Shown: positions 34,281-42,372 of the stretch, one piece after another
Layout: each line of letters opens with the position of its first letter
Position numbering within the stretch: position 1 is the stretch's first letter
Assembly (NCBI GenBank): GCA_037445815.1
Contig: JBBIJV010000003.1
Location: 1 to 49,453 of the forward strand
DNA length: 49,453 nt
Origin: Rhodospirillaceae bacterium
Lineage (GTDB): Bacteria > Pseudomonadota > Gammaproteobacteria > Steroidobacterales > Rariloculaceae
Reading direction: 5' to 3'
Made by a program: the position numbers and the translations under genes
The notes under the pieces: model-generated
Database searches by the model: none
What the model saw: the letters and a program-made list of their open reading frames with translations, nothing else
What the model was told of the DNA's origin: nothing

Positions 34281-34335
34281 TTATCGAGCCTATCGGAGCG
34301 CGCCGGGGCCCGCAATGACGCCCGCACGGGAGGTG

Positions 34336-35337
34336 TCAGCGCAGGAAATCCGCGGGATCGCGAGCGCCACCGCGCCGTCCCGGCTCGCGCACGTACACGC
34401 CGAAGTGCAGATGCGGCGGCGTGCTGATCGCATTGCCGGTGTTGCCGACGGCGCCGAGCGGCTGACCCGCGGTCACGAACTCGCCGGGCTCCACCCACTG
34501 CTCTGCCAGATGCGCGTAGTAGACGCGCATGTTGCCGAACAGCGGCTGCATCCAGATCACGTTGCCGCCGACGCGCGTCGTCTCGACACGCGTGATCCAA
34601 GCGTCGGTGGCCGCGAGCACCGGCGTGCCGCGCGCTGCGAAGATGTCGACGCCGCGATGCGCGCGCCGTCCGCCGTCGCGCTCCGCTCCGAAGCCGCTCC
34701 AGATCGCGCTGCCGCCGACCCCTTGAACGGGGAACTCAAGCAGCGCTTTGGCTTCGAGCTCGAGGTCGAGCTCGACCGTCTCGCCGACCGGTGGCTGAGC
34801 GCGCAGCACGTAGTCGCCGCCTTCGACGACATCAATCGTGAACGGCTCTGCACGGCTGCCGGGCAGCGCGCCGGCCACGCGCTCGTAGCGCGGCGACGAG
34901 CCGCGAAAAACGTCAACGAACAGCTCGGTGGCGGCGCCTTCTGCACCCGCAACCTTGATGGCGAGGCGCCGGCCGGACGGAACCGTGAACGCATAGCCGA
35001 CGGCCGTCGCTCCGCTCGCCTGCGCGCCGATCCTGCGCAGCGGCAGCTCGACGCGCTCGGGCTCGAAAAGCGCCCGCTCGGCCGCGGCGATCCATTCGCC
35101 CGCGAGCGGGTTTCGCTGCAGCCGCGTGAGCGCGAGCTCGTAGCCGTACGCCTGATGCGGGTACTGCGGCGAATACGGCGGCATTTCGATCGTGTTGACG
35201 GCCGGGGCAAGCGACATGATCGGCGCAAGCGAAAGCATGCTGGCCGCGCTCAACGCGAAGAAGTTTCGGAACGAGCAACACGAAAACGCGCGCTGCGCCG
35301 CCCGCCGGAGAGCGCCTTGACCCGCCCGCACTGCCAT
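34336..35337 (-). CDS. M23 family metallopeptidase
   Basis: HRGVD (HxxxD), YYAHL, GNTGNA, PHLHF; start uncertain, an alternative ATG lies near 35238. Confidence 0.88.
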   Translation of the reverse strand: MAVRAGQGALRRAAQRAFSCCSFRNFFALSAASMLSLAPIMSLAPAVNTIEMPPYSPQYPHQAYGYELALTRLQRNPLAGEWIAAAERALFEPERVELPLRRIGAQASGATAVGYAFTVPSGRRLAIKVAGAEGAATELFVDVFRGSSPRYERVAGALPGSRAEPFTIDVVEGGDYVLRAQPPVGETVELDLELEAKALLEFPVQGVGGSAIWSGFGAERDGGRRAHRGVDIFAARGTPVLAATDAWITRVETTRVGGNVIWMQPLFGNMRVYYAHLAEQWVEPGEFVTAGQPLGAVGNTGNAISTPPHLHFGVYVREPGRRGGARDPADFLR

Positions 35338-35469
35338 CGAAATCGATGGTACGCGCGATCGAGAGACGGTGTCGAGCAGCGAACCTGCAGAAAAATTCAG
35401 CGCCTGCCCGTTGACCGGGCCACCCCTGCTCCCTACGTTAGCCCCAGTCTCTTGGCCGGGTTTCGGTAC

Positions 35470-36681
35470 ATGCTCTTTGGCGAGATCGTCATCGTTGCTC
35501 TTCAGTCGATTCGCGCGAACCTGTTCCGCGCAATCCTGACGATGCTCGGCATCATCATCGGCGTCGGGGCGGTCATCACGATGCTCGCAGCCGGCGCGGG
35601 CGCCCAGAAGCGCATCGACGACCAGATCGCGGCTTTGGGCGCCAACATCCTCACGGTGAACGCGTCGCAGTTCTTCTCGGGCGGCATCTCTCGCGAGCGG
35701 CAAACGCTCGTCGTCGACGACGTCGACGCGCTGCTCGCGGACGCGCGGTATCTCGACGCCGTCGTGCCCGAGATGCAGAACCGCGGCCAGCTCAAGCTCG
35801 ACAACTTGAACACGAACACGCGGCTCATCGGCACGACGGCCGACTACGCACGAGTGTTCAATTACAAGCTGGCGCACGGCCGGTTCTTCACGCCGGCCGA
35901 GGACGAGCAGCGAAAGCGCGTCGTCGTGCTGGGCGCGGACATTCCGGGGCAGCTCGACAAGGATCCCGCCGAGCTCGTCGGCCGCACGATCGCGGTCAAC
36001 GGCCAACCGTTCGAGATCGTCGGCGTCTTCGAGAGCATCGGCGGCGGCTTCGGCAATCAGAGCCCGGACTTCGCGGCGCTGATTCCGTTCCGGACGGCCC
36101 AGCAGCGCGTCTTCGGCCGCGAGCAGCTCGACAACATCAACGTCCGAGTCTCCGAGGGCGCGTCGATGGAACGCGCCATGGTCGACATCGAGCGCGTGCT
36201 GCGCCGCGAGCACAAGCTGATGCCGGGCGCGGCAAACGATTTCTCGATCGTCGATCGGCGCGAGTTTCTCGACACGCAGCAGGAAGCGCAGCGAACGTTC
36301 ACGATGCTGCTCGCGAGCATCGCGGGCGTCAGCCTCCTCGTCGGCGGCATCGGCATCATGAACATCATGCTCGTCAGCGTCACGGAGCGGACGCGGGAGA
36401 TCGGAATTCGCATGGCGCTCGGCGCGACGCGCTTCAGCATTCTCTTGCAGTTCCTCGTCGAGTCCGTCACTTTGTGCCTTTTGGGCGGTGGACTGGGCAT
36501 TGCTCTTGGCACTCTCGCAGCACGAACGCTGTCACGTTTCGCAGGCTGGGAAACCTTCGTGTCGCCGGAATCCGTGGGGCTCGCTTCGGCGTTCAGCGTC
36601 GGCGTCGGGCTGTTCTTCGGCATCTGGCCCGCGCGCCGCGCCGCGCGTCTCGATCCCATCGAAGCGTTGCGCTACGAGTAA
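35470..36681 (+). CDS. MacB/FtsX-like ABC transporter permease
   Basis: LTMLGIIIGV, GGIGIMNIMLVSVTERTREIGIR.ALGA, QFL.ES, PARRAA.LDPIEALRYE. Confidence 0.95.
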   Translation: MLFGEIVIVALQSIRANLFRAILTMLGIIIGVGAVITMLAAGAGAQKRIDDQIAALGANILTVNASQFFSGGISRERQTLVVDDVDALLADARYLDAVVPEMQNRGQLKLDNLNTNTRLIGTTADYARVFNYKLAHGRFFTPAEDEQRKRVVVLGADIPGQLDKDPAELVGRTIAVNGQPFEIVGVFESIGGGFGNQSPDFAALIPFRTAQQRVFGREQLDNINVRVSEGASMERAMVDIERVLRREHKLMPGAANDFSIVDRREFLDTQQEAQRTFTMLLASIAGVSLLVGGIGIMNIMLVSVTERTREIGIRMALGATRFSILLQFLVESVTLCLLGGGLGIALGTLAARTLSRFAGWETFVSPESVGLASAFSVGVGLFFGIWPARRAARLDPIEALRYE

Positions 36682-37759
36682 AGCGCGGTCGGCCGCGCGC
36701 GCCGCGTGGCTCAGGGCGTCCGCGGCCGTGCTCCTTCTCGCGAGCACGGGCTGCGTGCTGCACGTGCAGCGCGCGCTCGAGCCGCCGCCGGGATTCGAAT
36801 ACGTGCCGCCGCAAAGCGCCGTCTCCCCATTCGACTCGTTCGAGCGGAATCCCGTCGTGCTGTCCGAGCCGTTCGACGAGACTCGCACGCACGAGATCGT
36901 GCATCTGTCGTTCGAATCGAGCGGCCGCAACGGCCACCCGCGCAATCTCGTCGAAGGACGATACTTCCGCTCGAAGGGCGTCGGCCGCAAGAGTCTCGTC
37001 GTGGTCTTGCCGATCTGGGGGACGAGCACGTATCCGCCGGCGAAGATCTCGGAAGGGTATGCGCGCCACGCGGGCCACGATACGCACGTCATCTGGATCT
37101 ACGGCGACGCCCCGATCTTCCCGTGGGACGAGCTGAGCACCGTGCCCACCGAGGAGGGATTTCGGGCCATGGCCCGCGACAGCGTCGAGCGCTATCGGGC
37201 GAGCGTCGTCGACATGCGAAGGCTCGTCGATTGGGCCGCGCAGCAAGCGGAGATCGATTCGACGCGCATCGCCTTCGTCGGATTCAGCATGAGCGCGCTG
37301 GTAACGGCCACACTGCTCGCGAACGAGCCGCGAGTGGCAGGCGGCGTGCTGATGATGGGCGCGGCCCGGTTCGCGGACGTATTCGCCTTCTGCCGCAATC
37401 GCGCGGGCGAAGTGCGCGAGCACGCGCTGCGCTCGTTCGGCTGGACCGCCGACGAGTATCGAGAATTCTTCAAGGGGCTGTTCGACCCGGCCGATCCGGC
37501 GCGCTTCATCGGCCGCTACGATCCGAACGAGATCCTCATGATCGACGCGATGTTCGACGATTGCATGCCGGAATCCTCGCGCGCCGCCCTGTGGGAGATC
37601 ACGGGCCACCCGCAGCGGGTGACGTTCCTGTACCGGCACCGCAGCGCGTTCTACTCGCTGACTCCGCTCGGCCTCAACGTGTCGCGGCGCAAGATCTACC
37701 GCTTCCTCGACGAAACCATCGGCAACCAGCGCGGCCGCCACGCGCCGGCGGCCGATTGA
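36674..37759 (+). CDS. Alpha/beta-hydrolase-fold lipoprotein; apparent ACG start
   Basis: Lipoprotein signal (M)SKARSAARAAWLRASAAVLLLASTG-C; RIAFVGFSMS nucleophile elbow; FDDC and H near the C-terminus. Confidence 0.8.
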   Translation, partial: TSKARSAARAAWLRASAAVLLLASTGCVLHVQRALEPPPGFEYVPPQSAVSPFDSFERNPVVLSEPFDETRTHEIVHLSFESSGRNGHPRNLVEGRYFRSKGVGRKSLVVVLPIWGTSTYPPAKISEGYARHAGHDTHVIWIYGDAPIFPWDELSTVPTEEGFRAMARDSVERYRASVVDMRRLVDWAAQQAEIDSTRIAFVGFSMSALVTATLLANEPRVAGGVLMMGAARFADVFAFCRNRAGEVREHALRSFGWTADEYREFFKGLFDPADPARFIGRYDPNEILMIDAMFDDCMPESSRAALWEITGHPQRVTFLYRHRSAFYSLTPLGLNVSRRKIYRFLDETIGNQRGRHAPAAD

Positions 37760-37837
37760 CATAACAGCACCCCGTGTCCTGCCGTTCCTGCGCGGGAATC
37801 GCTTGCGCAAGGCACCGTAACTCGGCGATATTCGGCG

Positions 37838-37932
37838 TTGCCGATCAAAGGTAAACCCGGCGAAAGCCGGGGACACAAAGCTTCCGGTCTAATGGGCTGT
37901 TCGAGGCCTTACGACAGCGGGGTTGCCGGCCA
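37838..37932 (+). ncRNA. Cyclic di-GMP-I (GEMM) riboswitch
   Basis: GGTAAAC-CCGGC-GAAA-GCCGG-GGACACAAAGCTTCCGGTCTAA...TACGACAGCGGGGTTGCC. Shows the P2 GAAA tetraloop, the CTAA...TACG receptor in P3 and P1 GCCG/CGGC, and aligns base for base with the V. cholerae Vc2 aptamer core. Confidence 0.95.
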
Positions 37933-38005
37933 CTTCGGGCAGTGCGCTCGCGGCGCTTCGCATCGTTCGACCGGCGGCACGGAATGTTAGGGAGTCCGTC
38001 CGCTC

Positions 38006-39376
38006 ATGAATACCGCCGTCGCGCGCAAACGGAATTTCAGCGTTGCTTTCCCGCCGGCCGGCTTGGGCCCGGCAACGACGGTCGAGGTCTCGACGCCGAG
38101 CGAGATTCAGCAGGTCTTGGCGGATGCCAAGCGTTATCCGAGCCCCGTGCGCCCGGTCGGCTCGGGCAGCTCGACGACGCGCTGCGTCACGGCGAACGGC
38201 GGCACGCAGCTCGATCTCTCGACCATGAACCGCGTGCTGAAAATCGACCGCGACCGTGTCACGGTGCAGCCCGGCATCGCGCTGACCGAGCTCGCCGAGG
38301 TCCTGAGCGACGAAGGGCTCGAGCTCGTCGGCGGATTCGACCTCGCCAACCGGACCGTCGGCGGCGCCGTGTCCGCGGCGGGGCTCGAGGCGTCGATGGC
38401 CGGCGACGTGGGCCAGTTCGCCTCGCACGTCGTGCAGCTCAAAGTTCTGAGCCCGAACGGGAAGAAGTTCGTCGTCAGCGAGAAGACCAAGAGCTTGCTC
38501 GCGCTGATGCGGCTGAGCTACGGCCTGCTCGGCGTCGTCTACGAGATCACGCTGCGCGTGCGGCCGATTCAAGGCTTCGCCGTGCAAACGGCGAAGGTGT
38601 CGTTCAAGGATTTCGGCAAGCTCGGCTCGAAGCTGCTCGGCGCGACGGCCGGCGTGAAGCTCTACCTGCTCCCGTTCCGCGATCGCATTTACCTCGAGCT
38701 GCGTCGGCCCGCGGCCGAAGCCGATCCGGGGCGCAAGTTCGCCTGGCGGTTCAAGGACTGGGCCGTGTACTCGGCGCTGCCGGAAGCCGCGCGATCGCTC
38801 GCCAGGGCCGTTCCGATCCGGCAGATTCGCTATCCCTTGATCGACAGCCTGAGCGAGGTGGCGCAGTCGATCGTCAACAATGCGCTCGTGCAGAGCGGCA
38901 GCAACGCAGTAGAGCAGAGCGGCCGCTACCGCCTGCTGGGGAGCAAGAGCCGGTTCTCGTACACGACGTGGGCGTTCCCGGCCGCCGAGTTCGCGAACAC
39001 GACGCTCGCCTACAAGCTGTTCTGCAAGGAGTACTACGCACGCACGGGCTTCCGCTGCGACATGCCGACGGTCGGCTTCCGCTTGAACCGCGATCGCAGC
39101 GCGCTGCTCTCGCCGTCGTTCGACAGCCCGATGTTCACGCTGAGCCCGCTGTCGACGCAGGTCGACGGCTGGGACGACTTCGTCCTCGACTTCGCGGACT
39201 TCGCGGCCAAGCACCGCGGCGTGCCGTTTTTCAATCAGACGCGCAACGCCACGCCCGAGGTCGTCGCTCAGCACTTCGGCAGTCGCCTCGCCTTCTTCAA
39301 CAAGGTCCGCCGCGAGCTCGACCCGACCGACCGCCTCGTCAACCAGTTCTTCCAGTCCTACCTCCCGCAAACGTGA
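38006..39376 (+). CDS. FAD-linked oxidoreductase (VAO/aldonolactone-oxidase-like FAD_binding_4 domain)
   Basis: RPVGSGSS, LDLSTMNRVL, VTVQPG, TVGGAV, YGLLGVV.EITL, C-terminal RRELDP....N. Confidence 0.88.
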   Translation: MNTAVARKRNFSVAFPPAGLGPATTVEVSTPSEIQQVLADAKRYPSPVRPVGSGSSTTRCVTANGGTQLDLSTMNRVLKIDRDRVTVQPGIALTELAEVLSDEGLELVGGFDLANRTVGGAVSAAGLEASMAGDVGQFASHVVQLKVLSPNGKKFVVSEKTKSLLALMRLSYGLLGVVYEITLRVRPIQGFAVQTAKVSFKDFGKLGSKLLGATAGVKLYLLPFRDRIYLELRRPAAEADPGRKFAWRFKDWAVYSALPEAARSLARAVPIRQIRYPLIDSLSEVAQSIVNNALVQSGSNAVEQSGRYRLLGSKSRFSYTTWAFPAAEFANTTLAYKLFCKEYYARTGFRCDMPTVGFRLNRDRSALLSPSFDSPMFTLSPLSTQVDGWDDFVLDFADFAAKHRGVPFFNQTRNATPEVVAQHFGSRLAFFNKVRRELDPTDRLVNQFFQSYLPQT

Positions 39377-39592
39377 CGGCGGAGCCCGACGCCCGCATCA
39401 CGCGCGGCGCCATGAGATCCGGATAGCCATTGCGCAGGCGCTCGCTGCGCGGCCGATGTCATTTCCGTGCGGATCTGTTGAGCGCGGCGCTCGGCACGCG
39501 GCGGCAGCTTCCGATCCCGGCGTTCGGCGTCGTCGTCATGACGGCCGCCGTAGTCGCAAGCGCCTTGGCGCGCAAGAAACGTTCGTGTGCCG

Positions 39593-41305
39593 TTACTTGA
39601 CGAACCCCAGCGCCTCGAGCTTTACGATGATGCGGTGCGCGGACATATCCGGCGTCGCGTCTGTCGTGTCGAGCCGCATCTCGGGATTCTCGGGCACCTC
39701 GTACGGATCGCTGATGCCCGTGAACTGCTTCAGGATGCCCGCGCGCGCCTTCGCATAGAGACCCTTGCGGTCGCGCTGCTCGCAAACCTCGAGCGGCGTG
39801 GCCACGTGCACCTCGATGAAGCCGCCGAGCGGCTCGATCATCTCGCGCACGAGCTTGCGCGTCGCGGCGTACGGAGCGATCGGGGCGCAGATCGCGATGC
39901 CGCCGTTCTTCGTGATCTCGCTCGCGACGTAACCGATGCGCTGGATGTTGAGATCGCGGTGCTCCTTCGAGAAGCCGAGCTCGCTCGACAAGTGCTTGCG
40001 CACGAGATCGCCGTCGAGCAGCGTCACGGGCCGGCCGCCCATCTCCATGAGCTTCACCATCAGCGCGTTCGCCACCGTGGACTTGCCCGAGCCCGAGAGG
40101 CCCGTAAAGAAGACCGTAAAGCCTTGCTTGTGGCGCGGCGGATGCGTGCGGCGCAGCTCGGCGACGACGGCCGGGAACGAGAACCACTCCGGAATCTCGG
40201 CGCCTTCCTGGAGCCGCCGGCGCAGCTCGGTGCCCGAGATGTCGAGCGTGCGAGCGCCGGGCTCGATCTCGTCCTCCGGGAAATACTGAGCCTTGTCCTC
40301 GACATACACCATGTTCTTGAACGGCACCATGGCGATGTCGAGCTCCTTTTCGAGCTCTTTCATGAGCCGCTGCGCGTCGTACGGGCCGTAGAACGGCTTG
40401 CCGTTCGAGTCCTTGCCGGGGCCCGCGTGGTCGCGGCCGACGATGAAGTGGGTGCAGCCGTAGTTCTTGCGGATGATCGCGTGCCAAACCGCCTCGCGCG
40501 GCCCGCCCATACGCATCGCGAGCGGCAGCAAGCTCAATGCCGTCGTCTGCTCCGGATAGACCTTGAGCAGGTGCTCGTAGCAGCGCACGCGCGTGAAGTG
40601 ATCGACGTCGCCGGGCTTGGTCATGCCGACCACGGGGTGAATCAACAGATTCGCTTCGACGTCCTTGGCGGCGCGGAACGTGAGCTCTTGATGCGCGCGG
40701 TGCATCGGATTGCGCGTCTGGAACGCCACGATGCGGCGCCAGCCGAGCTTCTGGAAGCGATCTCGAAGCTCTTTAGGAGTATCTCGCAAGTGCTTGAAAT
40801 CGTAATGAACAGGAGCCTCGACGCCGCGCAGCTTGCCGCCGAGATAAACCTCGTTGCTGCGCGTCTTCAAGTAGCTCACGCCCGGATGCTTGGTGTCGGT
40901 CGTGCCAAACACCGACTTGGCCTCGAGCTCGCGATCGGGGCGGTACACGCTCGAGATCTCCATCGTCGCCGTCAGGACGCCCTCGCCGTCGCGCAGCGCG
41001 ATCGTATCGCCCTCCTTGAGCTTCTCGGCGAACTGCGGCGTCACGTCGAGCGTGATCGGCATCGGCCAGATCACGCCGCTCGTCAGGTGCATCTTCGAGA
41101 GCACGCTCTGGTAGTCGGCTTCGTCCAAGAAACCCTCGAGCGGCGAGAACGCGCCGTTCAACAGCATCTCGATGTCGCAGAGCTGGCGCATCGTGAGATC
41201 CCAGGAAGGCAGATCTCGCGCGCGGGCCTTTTCCTTCGCGACGCCCGCTTCGTCGAGATACAAGTTTTTCAGTGTCCCGCCGTGGGGATCCTTCAATGAA
41301 CCCAT
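39593..41305 (-). CDS. Bifunctional sulfate adenylyltransferase / adenylyl-sulfate kinase (Sat-CysC fusion)
   Basis: PHGG, GAFSPL.GF, QTRNPMHRAH, GRDHAG; APS-kinase P-loop GLSGSGKST, LDGD, FTGISDPYE. Confidence 0.95.
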   Translation of the reverse strand: MGSLKDPHGGTLKNLYLDEAGVAKEKARARDLPSWDLTMRQLCDIEMLLNGAFSPLEGFLDEADYQSVLSKMHLTSGVIWPMPITLDVTPQFAEKLKEGDTIALRDGEGVLTATMEISSVYRPDRELEAKSVFGTTDTKHPGVSYLKTRSNEVYLGGKLRGVEAPVHYDFKHLRDTPKELRDRFQKLGWRRIVAFQTRNPMHRAHQELTFRAAKDVEANLLIHPVVGMTKPGDVDHFTRVRCYEHLLKVYPEQTTALSLLPLAMRMGGPREAVWHAIIRKNYGCTHFIVGRDHAGPGKDSNGKPFYGPYDAQRLMKELEKELDIAMVPFKNMVYVEDKAQYFPEDEIEPGARTLDISGTELRRRLQEGAEIPEWFSFPAVVAELRRTHPPRHKQGFTVFFTGLSGSGKSTVANALMVKLMEMGGRPVTLLDGDLVRKHLSSELGFSKEHRDLNIQRIGYVASEITKNGGIAICAPIAPYAATRKLVREMIEPLGGFIEVHVATPLEVCEQRDRKGLYAKARAGILKQFTGISDPYEVPENPEMRLDTTDATPDMSAHRIIVKLEALGFVK

Positions 41306-41391
41306 TCGCTTTGCTCCCGTGTGAATCCAATTGCGCGCTCTCACGCTCGGACCGTCGGCCTCGAGCCGCAGCGCTCGAAATAGTGTTTCGC

Positions 41392-42372
41392 TCAAGCGGC
41401 CGATAATTGCTCGGCCGTCGCGCGGATCGTCGCGGCGTTGATGGCGGGCAGGTACTGCGCTTGATGCTCTCGCCATTTCAAGGATTTCTTGATGATCGAC
41501 TCGAGGTTCGGCCGCTTGCCCTCGGGCCCCTCGCCTTTGCCGATACCGCCGCCGAGCTCGACGACGGTATCGATTCCGGCATCCACCGCCGTGTTGATGC
41601 ACGACACCCACTTCACCGGATTGAAGAGCTGGAAAAACAACCGCGAGCGGATCGCGTTGCTCGCGGACTCGTGCAGCTTGCCCGTGTAGTTCGACAGCGT
41701 GTCGACTTCGAGCGGCGCGAACTCCGTCTGCTCGAGCACCTTCCGAAACTCTTGCGCGGCACCGACCATCAGGTATGTGTGGAACGCGCCTTCGGTATTG
41801 AGCCGCACGCCGCGCTTCTGCGGGTACAGCGCGGCCATCTCCGCCGCCAAGGCATCGAGGTCGGCCGTCTCGCCGGCGACCACGGTCTGATCGGGCAGAT
41901 TGCAGCCGCCGATGCCGCAAAAGTACTTGTCGGCCAGCGCCCGAGCCTCGGGCAGCTCGAGCGTCGTCGCGAGCATCCCGCCGCGGCCGTGCTCGCTCAT
42001 GAGCTCGCCGCGCCGCTGCACGAGCTTGAGTGCGGCTTCGAACTCGAGCGCGCCGGCCATCACTAGCGCGGAGTACTCGCCCAAGCTGTGGCCCGCGCCC
42101 AAAGACGGCCGCACGCGGTCGCCGACGAGGCTGCGGAACGACTCGAGGCAAGCGATCTCGTGTGTCAGCAGCGCGGGCTGCGTGAAGCGGGTCTTGTTGA
42201 TCTCGTCGCGCGGGTCGCGGAACGAAAGCTCGGCCATGTCGTACCCAACGACGGCGCTTGCGCGCGCGTAAAGCTCCTTGGCGACGGGAAACTCGTCGAC
42301 GAGATCGGAGCCCATTCCCCGGTACTGAGACCCCTGCCCCGGGAAGACGAATAGAACCTTCTTGTCGGCCAC
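41392..42372 (-). CDS. fabD: ACP S-malonyltransferase (FabD-like), stand-alone
   Basis: FPGQGSQ, TQPAL, GHSLGEY, RG.LM, GAFH, PVKW. Confidence 0.88.
   Translation of the reverse strand: MADKKVLFVFPGQGSQYRGMGSDLVDEFPVAKELYARASAVVGYDMAELSFRDPRDEINKTRFTQPALLTHEIACLESFRSLVGDRVRPSLGAGHSLGEYSALVMAGALEFEAALKLVQRRGELMSEHGRGGMLATTLELPEARALADKYFCGIGGCNLPDQTVVAGETADLDALAAEMAALYPQKRGVRLNTEGAFHTYLMVGAAQEFRKVLEQTEFAPLEVDTLSNYTGKLHESASNAIRSRLFFQLFNPVKWVSCINTAVDAGIDTVVELGGGIGKGEGPEGKRPNLESIIKKSLKWREHQAQYLPAINAATIRATAEQLSAA

Follow-up and report, generated by a model that had tools for sequence, protein, structure and literature searches.

Riboswitches for cyclic di-GMP (c-di-GMP) are mainly known from positions before pili, flagella, adhesin, chitin, signalling and cytochrome genes. 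For the GEMM riboswitches, Table 2 of Weinberg et al. 2007 (PMC1950547) gives pili, flagella, chemotaxis, signalling, chitin, membrane and peptide genes, tfoX and cytochromes as targets; the words 'oxidoreductase' and 'FAD' (flavin adenine dinucleotide) were not found in the main text of that paper and Table 2 holds no such enzyme, the supplements that list nearby genes, which might name one, being left out of this statement. As outlined in PMC9262584, the Cd1 riboswitch of Clostridioides difficile is a transcriptional OFF switch, with strands paired as [PA][TH] in the presence of ligand and as [AT] in its absence. Here we describe a c-di-GMP-I (GEMM-I) aptamer that lies in front of a flavoprotein gene in a stretch of 49,453 bases (contig JBBIJV010000003.1 of assembly GCA_037445815.1; hereafter the window, at its full length). 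Our favoured reading, held with moderate confidence, is that a c-di-GMP aptamer at the 5' end of the mRNA acts as a translational OFF switch over an ALO-like FAD enzyme, and that this arrangement has been kept across an order of Gammaproteobacteria.

For identification of the aptamer, the whole window was scanned with Rfam at gathering thresholds. RF01051 (c-di-GMP-I) gave the sole match, at 37840-37930 on the forward strand, with 74.7 bits (gathering score 35 bits) and an E value of 6e-13; the match is untruncated, spanning model positions 1-87 of 87, and a search of the whole genome returned 74.7 bits again. A preliminary description, made from the letters alone, had proposed a complete GEMM-I aptamer here and an Infernal search with RF01051 as the way to check it; the significant, full-length match confirms that the aptamer is genuine, far beyond chance. 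Contact nucleotides were read by hand from the cmscan alignment, using an offset to the numbering of Vc2 that we take to be correct. The equivalent of G20 (model position 11) is G37850, the unpaired G preceding the first helix, that of A47 (model position 38) is A37877, the intercalating A, and that of C92 (model position 83) is C37926, the C after the last helix; the first and last of these agree with the earlier placement. Likewise borne out was a compensatory change in the two-pair stem, where model pair 13/36, C-G in the consensus, is U37852-A37875, a double change by which pairing is kept. All 26 pairs of the window aptamer are canonical (22 Rfam pairs plus a 4-bp P1 formed by 37840-43 with 37927-30), and a GAAA tetraloop lies at 37862-65. 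Across 23 leaders the three ligand-contact columns do not vary, and P1 covaries among relatives, being G-C in most and A-U in L017 and L018. We infer that the window aptamer binds its ligand.

The start codon of the flavoprotein gene, at 38006, follows the end of the aptamer by 75 nt, and the pairing of aptamer and gene was then examined among relatives. The window flavoprotein has hundreds of metagenomic relatives at 80-96% identity, and wherever a close-relative locus had enough DNA upstream the aptamer was present (57 of 57). Among 24 loci in species-representative genomes, RF01051 was found upstream on the same strand in all 22 that had upstream DNA; outside these stand L025, which is cut at its 5' end, and L028, a 42% partial match in a Planctomycetaceae genome, without aptamer. 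For 43 loci on metagenome contigs the count was 35 of 35 with at least 184 nt upstream, leaving aside L060 (only 74 nt upstream), L071 (a 40% partial match) and six loci truncated at the 5' end. Across the order, a homolog of the flavoprotein was found in 58 of 201 sampled genomes and 25 of 60 genera. A GEMM-I-clan aptamer lies 60-300 nt upstream, on the same strand as the homolog, in 46 of the 57 other homolog-bearing genomes, or 46 of the 55 that are informative, G003 and G006 being uninformative owing to contig ends. These 46 comprise 18 genomes with matched homolog and aptamer coordinates together with 20 of 20 and 8 of 19 from two further locus sets. Linkage persists at 31% protein identity in G145; the aptamer is missing upstream of the homolog in nine genomes, namely all seven of family f17 plus G014 and G004, with homologs 31-35% identical. 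Linkage counts are not to be read as independent events, since the genomes of the order overlap the close-relative loci and are related. Taken from these comparisons, the riboswitch-gene pair appears to be old and kept across an order of Gammaproteobacteria most of whose members are uncultured and which is probably Woeseiales, as the source-given names of the close relatives of the f10 homolog are Woeseiaceae and Woeseia sp. The survey of homologs for the same upstream aptamer had been suggested in the preliminary description, and its proposal that a redox flavoenzyme stands under c-di-GMP control is supported, and strengthened by conservation at both levels.

The genome itself (G000; an assembly of 3.5 Mb in 313 contigs, 88% complete) holds 27 GGDEF-domain matches and three further GEMM-I aptamers, which precede an M23 peptidase gene (C108, L001:1500-1585, reverse strand), pilM (C33, L003:1503-1599, forward strand) and a 217-residue open reading frame (ORF) without assigned function (C112, L004:1502-1576, forward strand). 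On account of these GGDEF matches and additional aptamers, the organism appears to use c-di-GMP riboswitches for classic lifestyle genes as well as for this enzyme. In clan competition the best model for the three other copies is the variant RF03167 (c-di-GMP-I-GGC), at 63-68 bits where 59 is the gathering score, and the same copies also reach 59-79 bits with RF01051. Some homolog-linked aptamers of other families (L080-L082, L094-L097 and L100) likewise score best with RF03167. Such scores would suit an aptamer ligand other than c-di-GMP, for example 3'3'-cGAMP (cyclic GMP-AMP) or another dinucleotide, but the window aptamer scores best as RF01051, its three contact equivalents belong to the invariant columns, and A20, the signature of cGAMP variants, is absent, the equivalent position being G. 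A different ligand is therefore exceedingly improbable. Among other features of these aptamers, L004 has the ATG of its ORF at 1577, directly at the 3' end of the aptamer at 1576, so that its platform would be very compact and P1 itself would overlap the translation start. Tandem GEMM-I aptamers on the same strand, about 110-210 nt apart, were seen in two genomes (G156:C2:1718215-1718299 and 1718412-1718500; G045:C78:93192-93291 and 93402-93502), and genomes of the order have between 2 and 21 GEMM-I matches each (21 in G030, 17 in G115 and in G052).

The layout of the leader was compared across relatives. Upstream of the aptamer, a promoter-like element occupies 37802-37832 on the forward strand, with CTTGC at 37802-37806, a -35-like TTGCGC at 37803-37808, a spacer of 18 nt and a -10-like GATATT at 37827-37832; it ends 7 nt before the aptamer in the window. 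In the alignment of 23 loci, CTTGC and A-T-A-.-T are unvarying, 17-18 nt apart, and end 7-8 nt before the aptamer. The element is probably a promoter and, with a promoter just upstream, the aptamer would sit at the very 5' end of the mRNA. Downstream, the Shine-Dalgarno (SD) sequence GGGAG lies at 37990-37994, 11 nt before the ATG, and in 21 of 23 leaders GGGAG is found at a fixed distance from the ATG, with CAGGAG in L011 and TCGGAG in L024. For the linkers, 58 leaders including five duplicates were collected, leaving 53 distinct. In most of them the aptamer is followed in order by GCGGCRCUCCC, a U-rich sequence, an A-rich stretch, GGGAG and ATG. CTCCC occurs in 46 of the 58 linkers and an SD-complementary pentamer in 48 of the 53 distinct leaders, the window, L020, L030, L031 and L042 being those that miss it. 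Two regions are complementary to the strand GCGGCRCUCCC (T), namely the SD region (H) and, within the aptamer, its 3' strand GGGGUUGCCGG (A), and T:H and A:T pairings both occur in minimum free energy (MFE) folds, of different leaders.

Because this layout matches the P-A-T-H scheme with the ribosome-binding site as H, it is read as a translational OFF switch of the clade. Transcription would begin at the CTTGC...GATATT element and give a monocistronic transcript headed by the aptamer. At high c-di-GMP the aptamer would be closed, with P paired to A, leaving T free; the freed T would pair with GGGAG and its flanks, and translation would be blocked. Without ligand, GGGGUUGCCGG would capture T and leave the ribosome-binding site free. 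Production of the enzyme would thus go with low c-di-GMP and cease when c-di-GMP is high, a direction of switching that we infer from the strand layout.

Pairing of T with the ribosome-binding site (RBS) was examined by exchanging partners among leaders, shuffle z-scores being underpowered in GC-rich RNA. Native linker-RBS duplexes averaged -19.50 kcal/mol against -18.20 kcal/mol for permuted ones (z -4.08; 0 of 5000 permutations). When each of the 25 RBS-flank types was represented by a single sequence, the values were -18.19 and -17.09 kcal/mol (median p 0.012, maximum 0.126). Ungapped extension of the helix anchored on its 5-bp core was used in place of RNAalifold, since the MAFFT alignment shifts register between subclades. 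Native leaders gained 1.33 pairs beyond the core, against 0.66 (0/5000), and with one per flank-pair type (n = 28) the figures were 1.21 and 0.72 (6/5000). The flanks can be seen to change together, as where CCUU|CUCCC faces GGGAG|AAGG and CCCU|CUCCC faces GGGAG|AGGG; at the first flank position the two largest groups have A with U or G with U. In partition-function folding, GGGAG was unpaired with a mean probability of 0.44, which fell to 0.20 once the aptamer was enforced, with a decrease in 17 of 23 leaders (Wilcoxon p 0.004). The option of a translational platform, raised in the preliminary description, thereby gains comparative support from an anti-SD strand whose flanks covary with the RBS region.

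Several results weigh against a translational OFF switch and were considered alongside these. The sigma-70 consensus scan returned 0 promoters, the conserved upstream element failing it, so that the promoter role rests on conservation and position. Comparison of the aptamer-enforced state with one in which the aptamer 3' strand is free was marginal (16 of 23 leaders, p 0.056). RNAalifold on the 53 post-aptamer leaders gave 3 pairs (CCC:GGG) with 0 compensatory changes and -0.13 kcal/mol, and duplex z-scores against mononucleotide shuffles were weak, with means of -1.35 for the anti-SD and -0.42 for the anti-aptamer pairing. The permutation p-values overstate independence because the sequences are related, and no covariation can be seen for the A:T pairing, one side of which, the aptamer strand, does not vary. 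Finally, the 10 nt after CUCCC are U-rich, with a mean of 4.06 T and at least 5 T in 17 of 48 leaders where the T fraction of the linkers is 0.169, and this U-rich stretch could instead belong to a terminator.

On that account, the leaders could form an ON switch by attenuation, in which GGGGUUGCCGG:GCGGCRCUCCC and the U-rich stretch make up a terminator in the ligand-free state and c-di-GMP prevents it. Besides the composition of those 10 nt, which is U-rich for this GC content, T pairs with the aptamer 3' strand in unconstrained MFE folds of L005, L007, L009, L020 and L023. Terminators overlap P2 in 78 of 322 GEMM instances in the main account of Weinberg et al. 2007 (PMC1950547), where this arrangement is a common one. 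However, the terminator scan gave no forward-strand terminator-like site in 37600-39700, in keeping with the earlier remark that no clear terminator separates aptamer and gene, and it found no GC-rich hairpin with U tract between aptamer and start codon. Compact intrinsic terminators look different, the arms of the putative one being 20-30 nt apart, often with a hairpin of their own. Once polymerase had read through, the released CUCCC would go on masking the SD, so that such a switch would defeat itself; the flanks covary with the RBS and not with the invariant aptamer strand; and in the folds of several leaders (for example L026 and L015) the U-rich stretch is taken up in pairing with the A-rich segment that precedes the SD. 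Attenuation fits less well, as there is no compact terminator and the freed T would still block the SD, and we regard it as quite unlikely. The sole terminator-like match of the scan, at 37856-37871 on the reverse strand, consists of the aptamer P1b hairpin on the minus strand followed by TTTACCTTTG; it was rejected as an artefact of the aptamer sequence.

Termination by Rho, the other platform raised in the preliminary description, or a different kinetic route could also operate instead of SD occlusion, and could act together with translational control. The lack of an intrinsic terminator and the leader length of 75 nt are consistent with such a route, but the leader is GC-rich and highly structured in folds, which in general disfavours Rho loading, and the conserved anti-SD strand is better explained by translational control. 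This route is accordingly judged very unlikely as the alternative to SD occlusion.

Returning to translational OFF control, the window's own copy of the platform differs from that of most relatives. Its switching strand, at 37950-37961 on the forward strand, is degraded and reads GCGGCGCUUCGC where relatives have GCGGCRCUCCC, a strand that when intact is complementary to the aptamer 3' strand at 37919-37929. Three of the four other leaders without the SD-complementary pentamer are among the closer relatives of the window (L030 and L031 at 90% protein identity, L042 at 84%), and L029 (94%) and L032 (90%) keep only the wobble-compatible UUCCC or UUUCC. Folding of the window leader adds two more points to those that weigh against SD occlusion: its SD is about 0.8 unpaired in every state (0.78, 0.84 and 0.84), and its linker binds its own RBS worse (-16.4) than do the linkers of other lineages (-19.5). 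The word 'intact' in the preliminary description thus stands for the aptamer but may not apply to the expression platform of this copy, with its degraded anti-SD and no predicted SD switching. Since the T strand has decayed, the response of the window copy may be weak, lost or achieved otherwise.

Decay of the platform in the window lineage would take this further: the aptamer would be kept and may bind, while expression would be largely constitutive or control residual. The replacement of T by GCGGCGCUUCGC, the clustering of pentamer loss near the window, the exposed SD in all three states and the poor match of linker to RBS are what this explanation draws on. Against it, the window aptamer is as well conserved as those of the other leaders, and the aptamers of L029-L032 and L042 score 66-79 bits, pointing to clear purifying selection that is hard to explain without function. 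Another point against decay is a predicted hairpin at 37971-38004 on the forward strand, which could give an alternative switch that equilibrium folding misses. In this hairpin CGGCGG-C-ACGGA (about 37972-37983) pairs with UCCGUCCGCU (37995-38004), with the SD in the loop and a duplex energy of -16.4 kcal/mol, and it is present in the MFE, aptamer-enforced and 3'-strand-free folds of the window. Reading by hand further shows complementarity between the 5' arm of the hairpin, CCGGCGGC, and the aptamer strand GUUGCCGG, so the hairpin might serve as an alternative switch. Platform decay is unlikely in our estimate.

The gene under the riboswitch, at 38006-39376 on the forward strand, encodes a 456-residue flavoprotein of the VAO/PCMH fold. 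Pfam gave FAD_binding_4 at 77.7 bits (cut-off 26.4) and ALO at 28.6 bits (cut-off 23.1), both above their cut-offs, so the earlier recognition of an aldonolactone-oxidase-like flavoprotein about 75 nt downstream holds. No curated NCBIfam model reached its cut-off for this protein: scores were far under them for bact_FAD_ox (79 against 292), sugar 1,4-lactone oxidase (74.7 against 396.8), L-galactono-1,4-lactone dehydrogenase (GLDH; GLDHase model, 60.4 against 458.25) and DprE1 (43.2 against 500). For this reason it was not filed as a sugar 1,4-lactone oxidase, GLDH or DprE1. By sequence, the closest entry in the PDB is GLDH, whose match (E 2e-19) is confined to residues 29-251. A confident structure predicted with AlphaFold2 from 39 aligned sequences (pLDDT 87.5, pTM 0.88) resembles GLDH, alditol oxidase, type II cholesterol oxidase, DprE1 and cytokinin oxidase with TM scores of about 0.6-0.8 at 13-21% identity to the solved structures; for GLDH, Foldseek gave an E value of 1.8e-25 and a TM score of about 0.7. 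The modelled fold thus appears to be generic VAO/PCMH, without a specific enzyme assignment. The first 19 residues have low model confidence and no hydrophobic stretch, so the protein is taken to be cytoplasmic.

This is a small family: a search of 1.84 billion representatives yields 99 clusters of 50% identity at E <= 1e-30. Fusions to SDR reductases, GMC oxidoreductases or an MpaB/Lcp domain occur among distant members. At 28-35% identity these relatives are too distant and transfer of function from them was rejected; the SDR fusions recall the DprE1/DprE2 oxidase-reductase pair, as a lead only. In aldonolactone oxidases the histidine of a G-x-x-H-S motif carries covalent 8-alpha-histidyl FAD, and GLDH lacks it. 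This histidine was not found in the window protein, where residue 55 of the motif is Ser (GSGSS), and is present (GSxHS) in 20 of the 39 aligned family members. With Ser55 in place of His, the FAD is expected to be non-covalent, and the chemistry is perhaps that of a dehydrogenase rather than an oxidase. A closer look at 12 loci found S, T or Y instead of the histidine in each of the 10 riboswitch-linked homologs, whereas both riboswitch-less f17 homologs have it, suggesting that the riboswitch marks a distinct His-less subfamily. The f17 homologs lie in a tight same-strand cluster of flavoprotein, yccF-like membrane protein and aldehyde dehydrogenase (L121:4957-8550, L122:2783-6411), a gene order suggestive of conversion of an alcohol through an aldehyde to an acid in that paralogous group.

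Downstream of the flavoprotein gene lies a convergent gene for a bifunctional sulfate adenylyltransferase/adenylylsulfate kinase at 39593-41293 on the reverse strand (start approximate), matched by NF004040 with 967.8 bits over residues 287-852 of the long ORF 39593-42151. This gene appears to mark the end of the riboswitch-controlled unit and, as it is convergent, the flavoprotein unit is taken to be monocistronic. Upstream of the aptamer are an ORF without Pfam match and a MacB-type permease. A MacB-type permease together with an unannotated hydrolase-like ORF was seen upstream of the riboswitch both in the window (34315-37759) and in G114 (L120:6656-9107). In four f10 loci examined (L111-L113 and L118) HlyD-family membrane-fusion genes lie within 1-3 kb, with PadR in two. 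These permease and HlyD neighbours may reflect old synteny with a MacAB-like exporter. The permease ORF (34315-36681, forward strand) has 788 residues, of which the N-terminal 400 are Arg/Ala-rich and domainless; MacB_PCD and FtsX are confined to residues 407-781, which makes a true gene start well inside the listed ORF probable. A conserved operon partner was not found among the riboswitch-bearing loci examined, and so context gives no functional clue in them.

Sequencing runs were also consulted. The stretch occurs in one DNA run only, which may be its source, and no run covers 37700-37807. RNA-labelled runs contain small shares of it, as contigs from relatives at 85-95% likeness, and most pieces are of the aptamer core at about 37846-37890, which probably come from other GEMM-I loci. 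Two longer contigs from these runs, of 219 nt (X20, record 26) and 187 nt (X15, record 7), span 37850-38041 and 37904-38031, respectively. The RNA-labelled contigs show no transcription start site, strand or transcription at the window locus.

Since all close relatives examined show the pairing, as do most genomes of the order that carry a homolog, the enzyme is a concrete lead to a metabolic or envelope reaction controlled by c-di-GMP, and the tie of its family to the riboswitch is closer than that of most known targets. More speculatively, and in a form that is on balance unlikely, the His-less flavoprotein could be an ancient core c-di-GMP output in Woeseiales-like Gammaproteobacteria, a dedicated dehydrogenase translationally off at high c-di-GMP and possibly DprE1-like, with a precursor sugar of the envelope or of exopolysaccharide, or another lifestyle metabolite, as its substrate. 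If true, riboswitch control by this second messenger would reach a specific redox reaction of the low-c-di-GMP state. The order, judged by the names of homologs, includes the globally abundant sediment family Woeseiaceae, and a cultured relative, Woeseia oceani, may permit direct tests. Leaders with intact and with decayed anti-SD strands offer a natural series on the working and erosion of a translational c-di-GMP switch.

Full-text literature searches joining riboswitch, c-di-GMP and 'lactone oxidase', and joining Woeseia with c-di-GMP, found nothing. Among characterized flavoenzymes, GLDH, alditol oxidase, DprE1 and type II cholesterol oxidase share FAD_binding_4, ALO and the VAO/PCMH fold with the window protein, which differs from them in scoring below the NCBIfam cut-offs, in its 13-21% identity, in Ser55 and in belonging to a small family. 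Compared with Cd1, as far as its outline goes, the proposed logic is the same, in that the bound aptamer [PA] coexists with a gene-silencing helix [TH]. The two differ in that H is the terminator 3' arm in Cd1 and the Shine-Dalgarno region here, so that control here would be translational. With Vc2 of Vibrio cholerae, the type example of RF01051, the window aptamer shares its helices, the GAAA tetraloop and the ligand-contact nucleotides G20, A47 and C92. With the class as a whole it shares a position in the 5' untranslated region, in cis to its gene, and a genome with many GGDEF proteins; the difference lies in the family of the target gene, a FAD flavoenzyme. The riboswitch class is thus a known one, set before a target gene family that, on present comparisons, appears to be new and deeply conserved.

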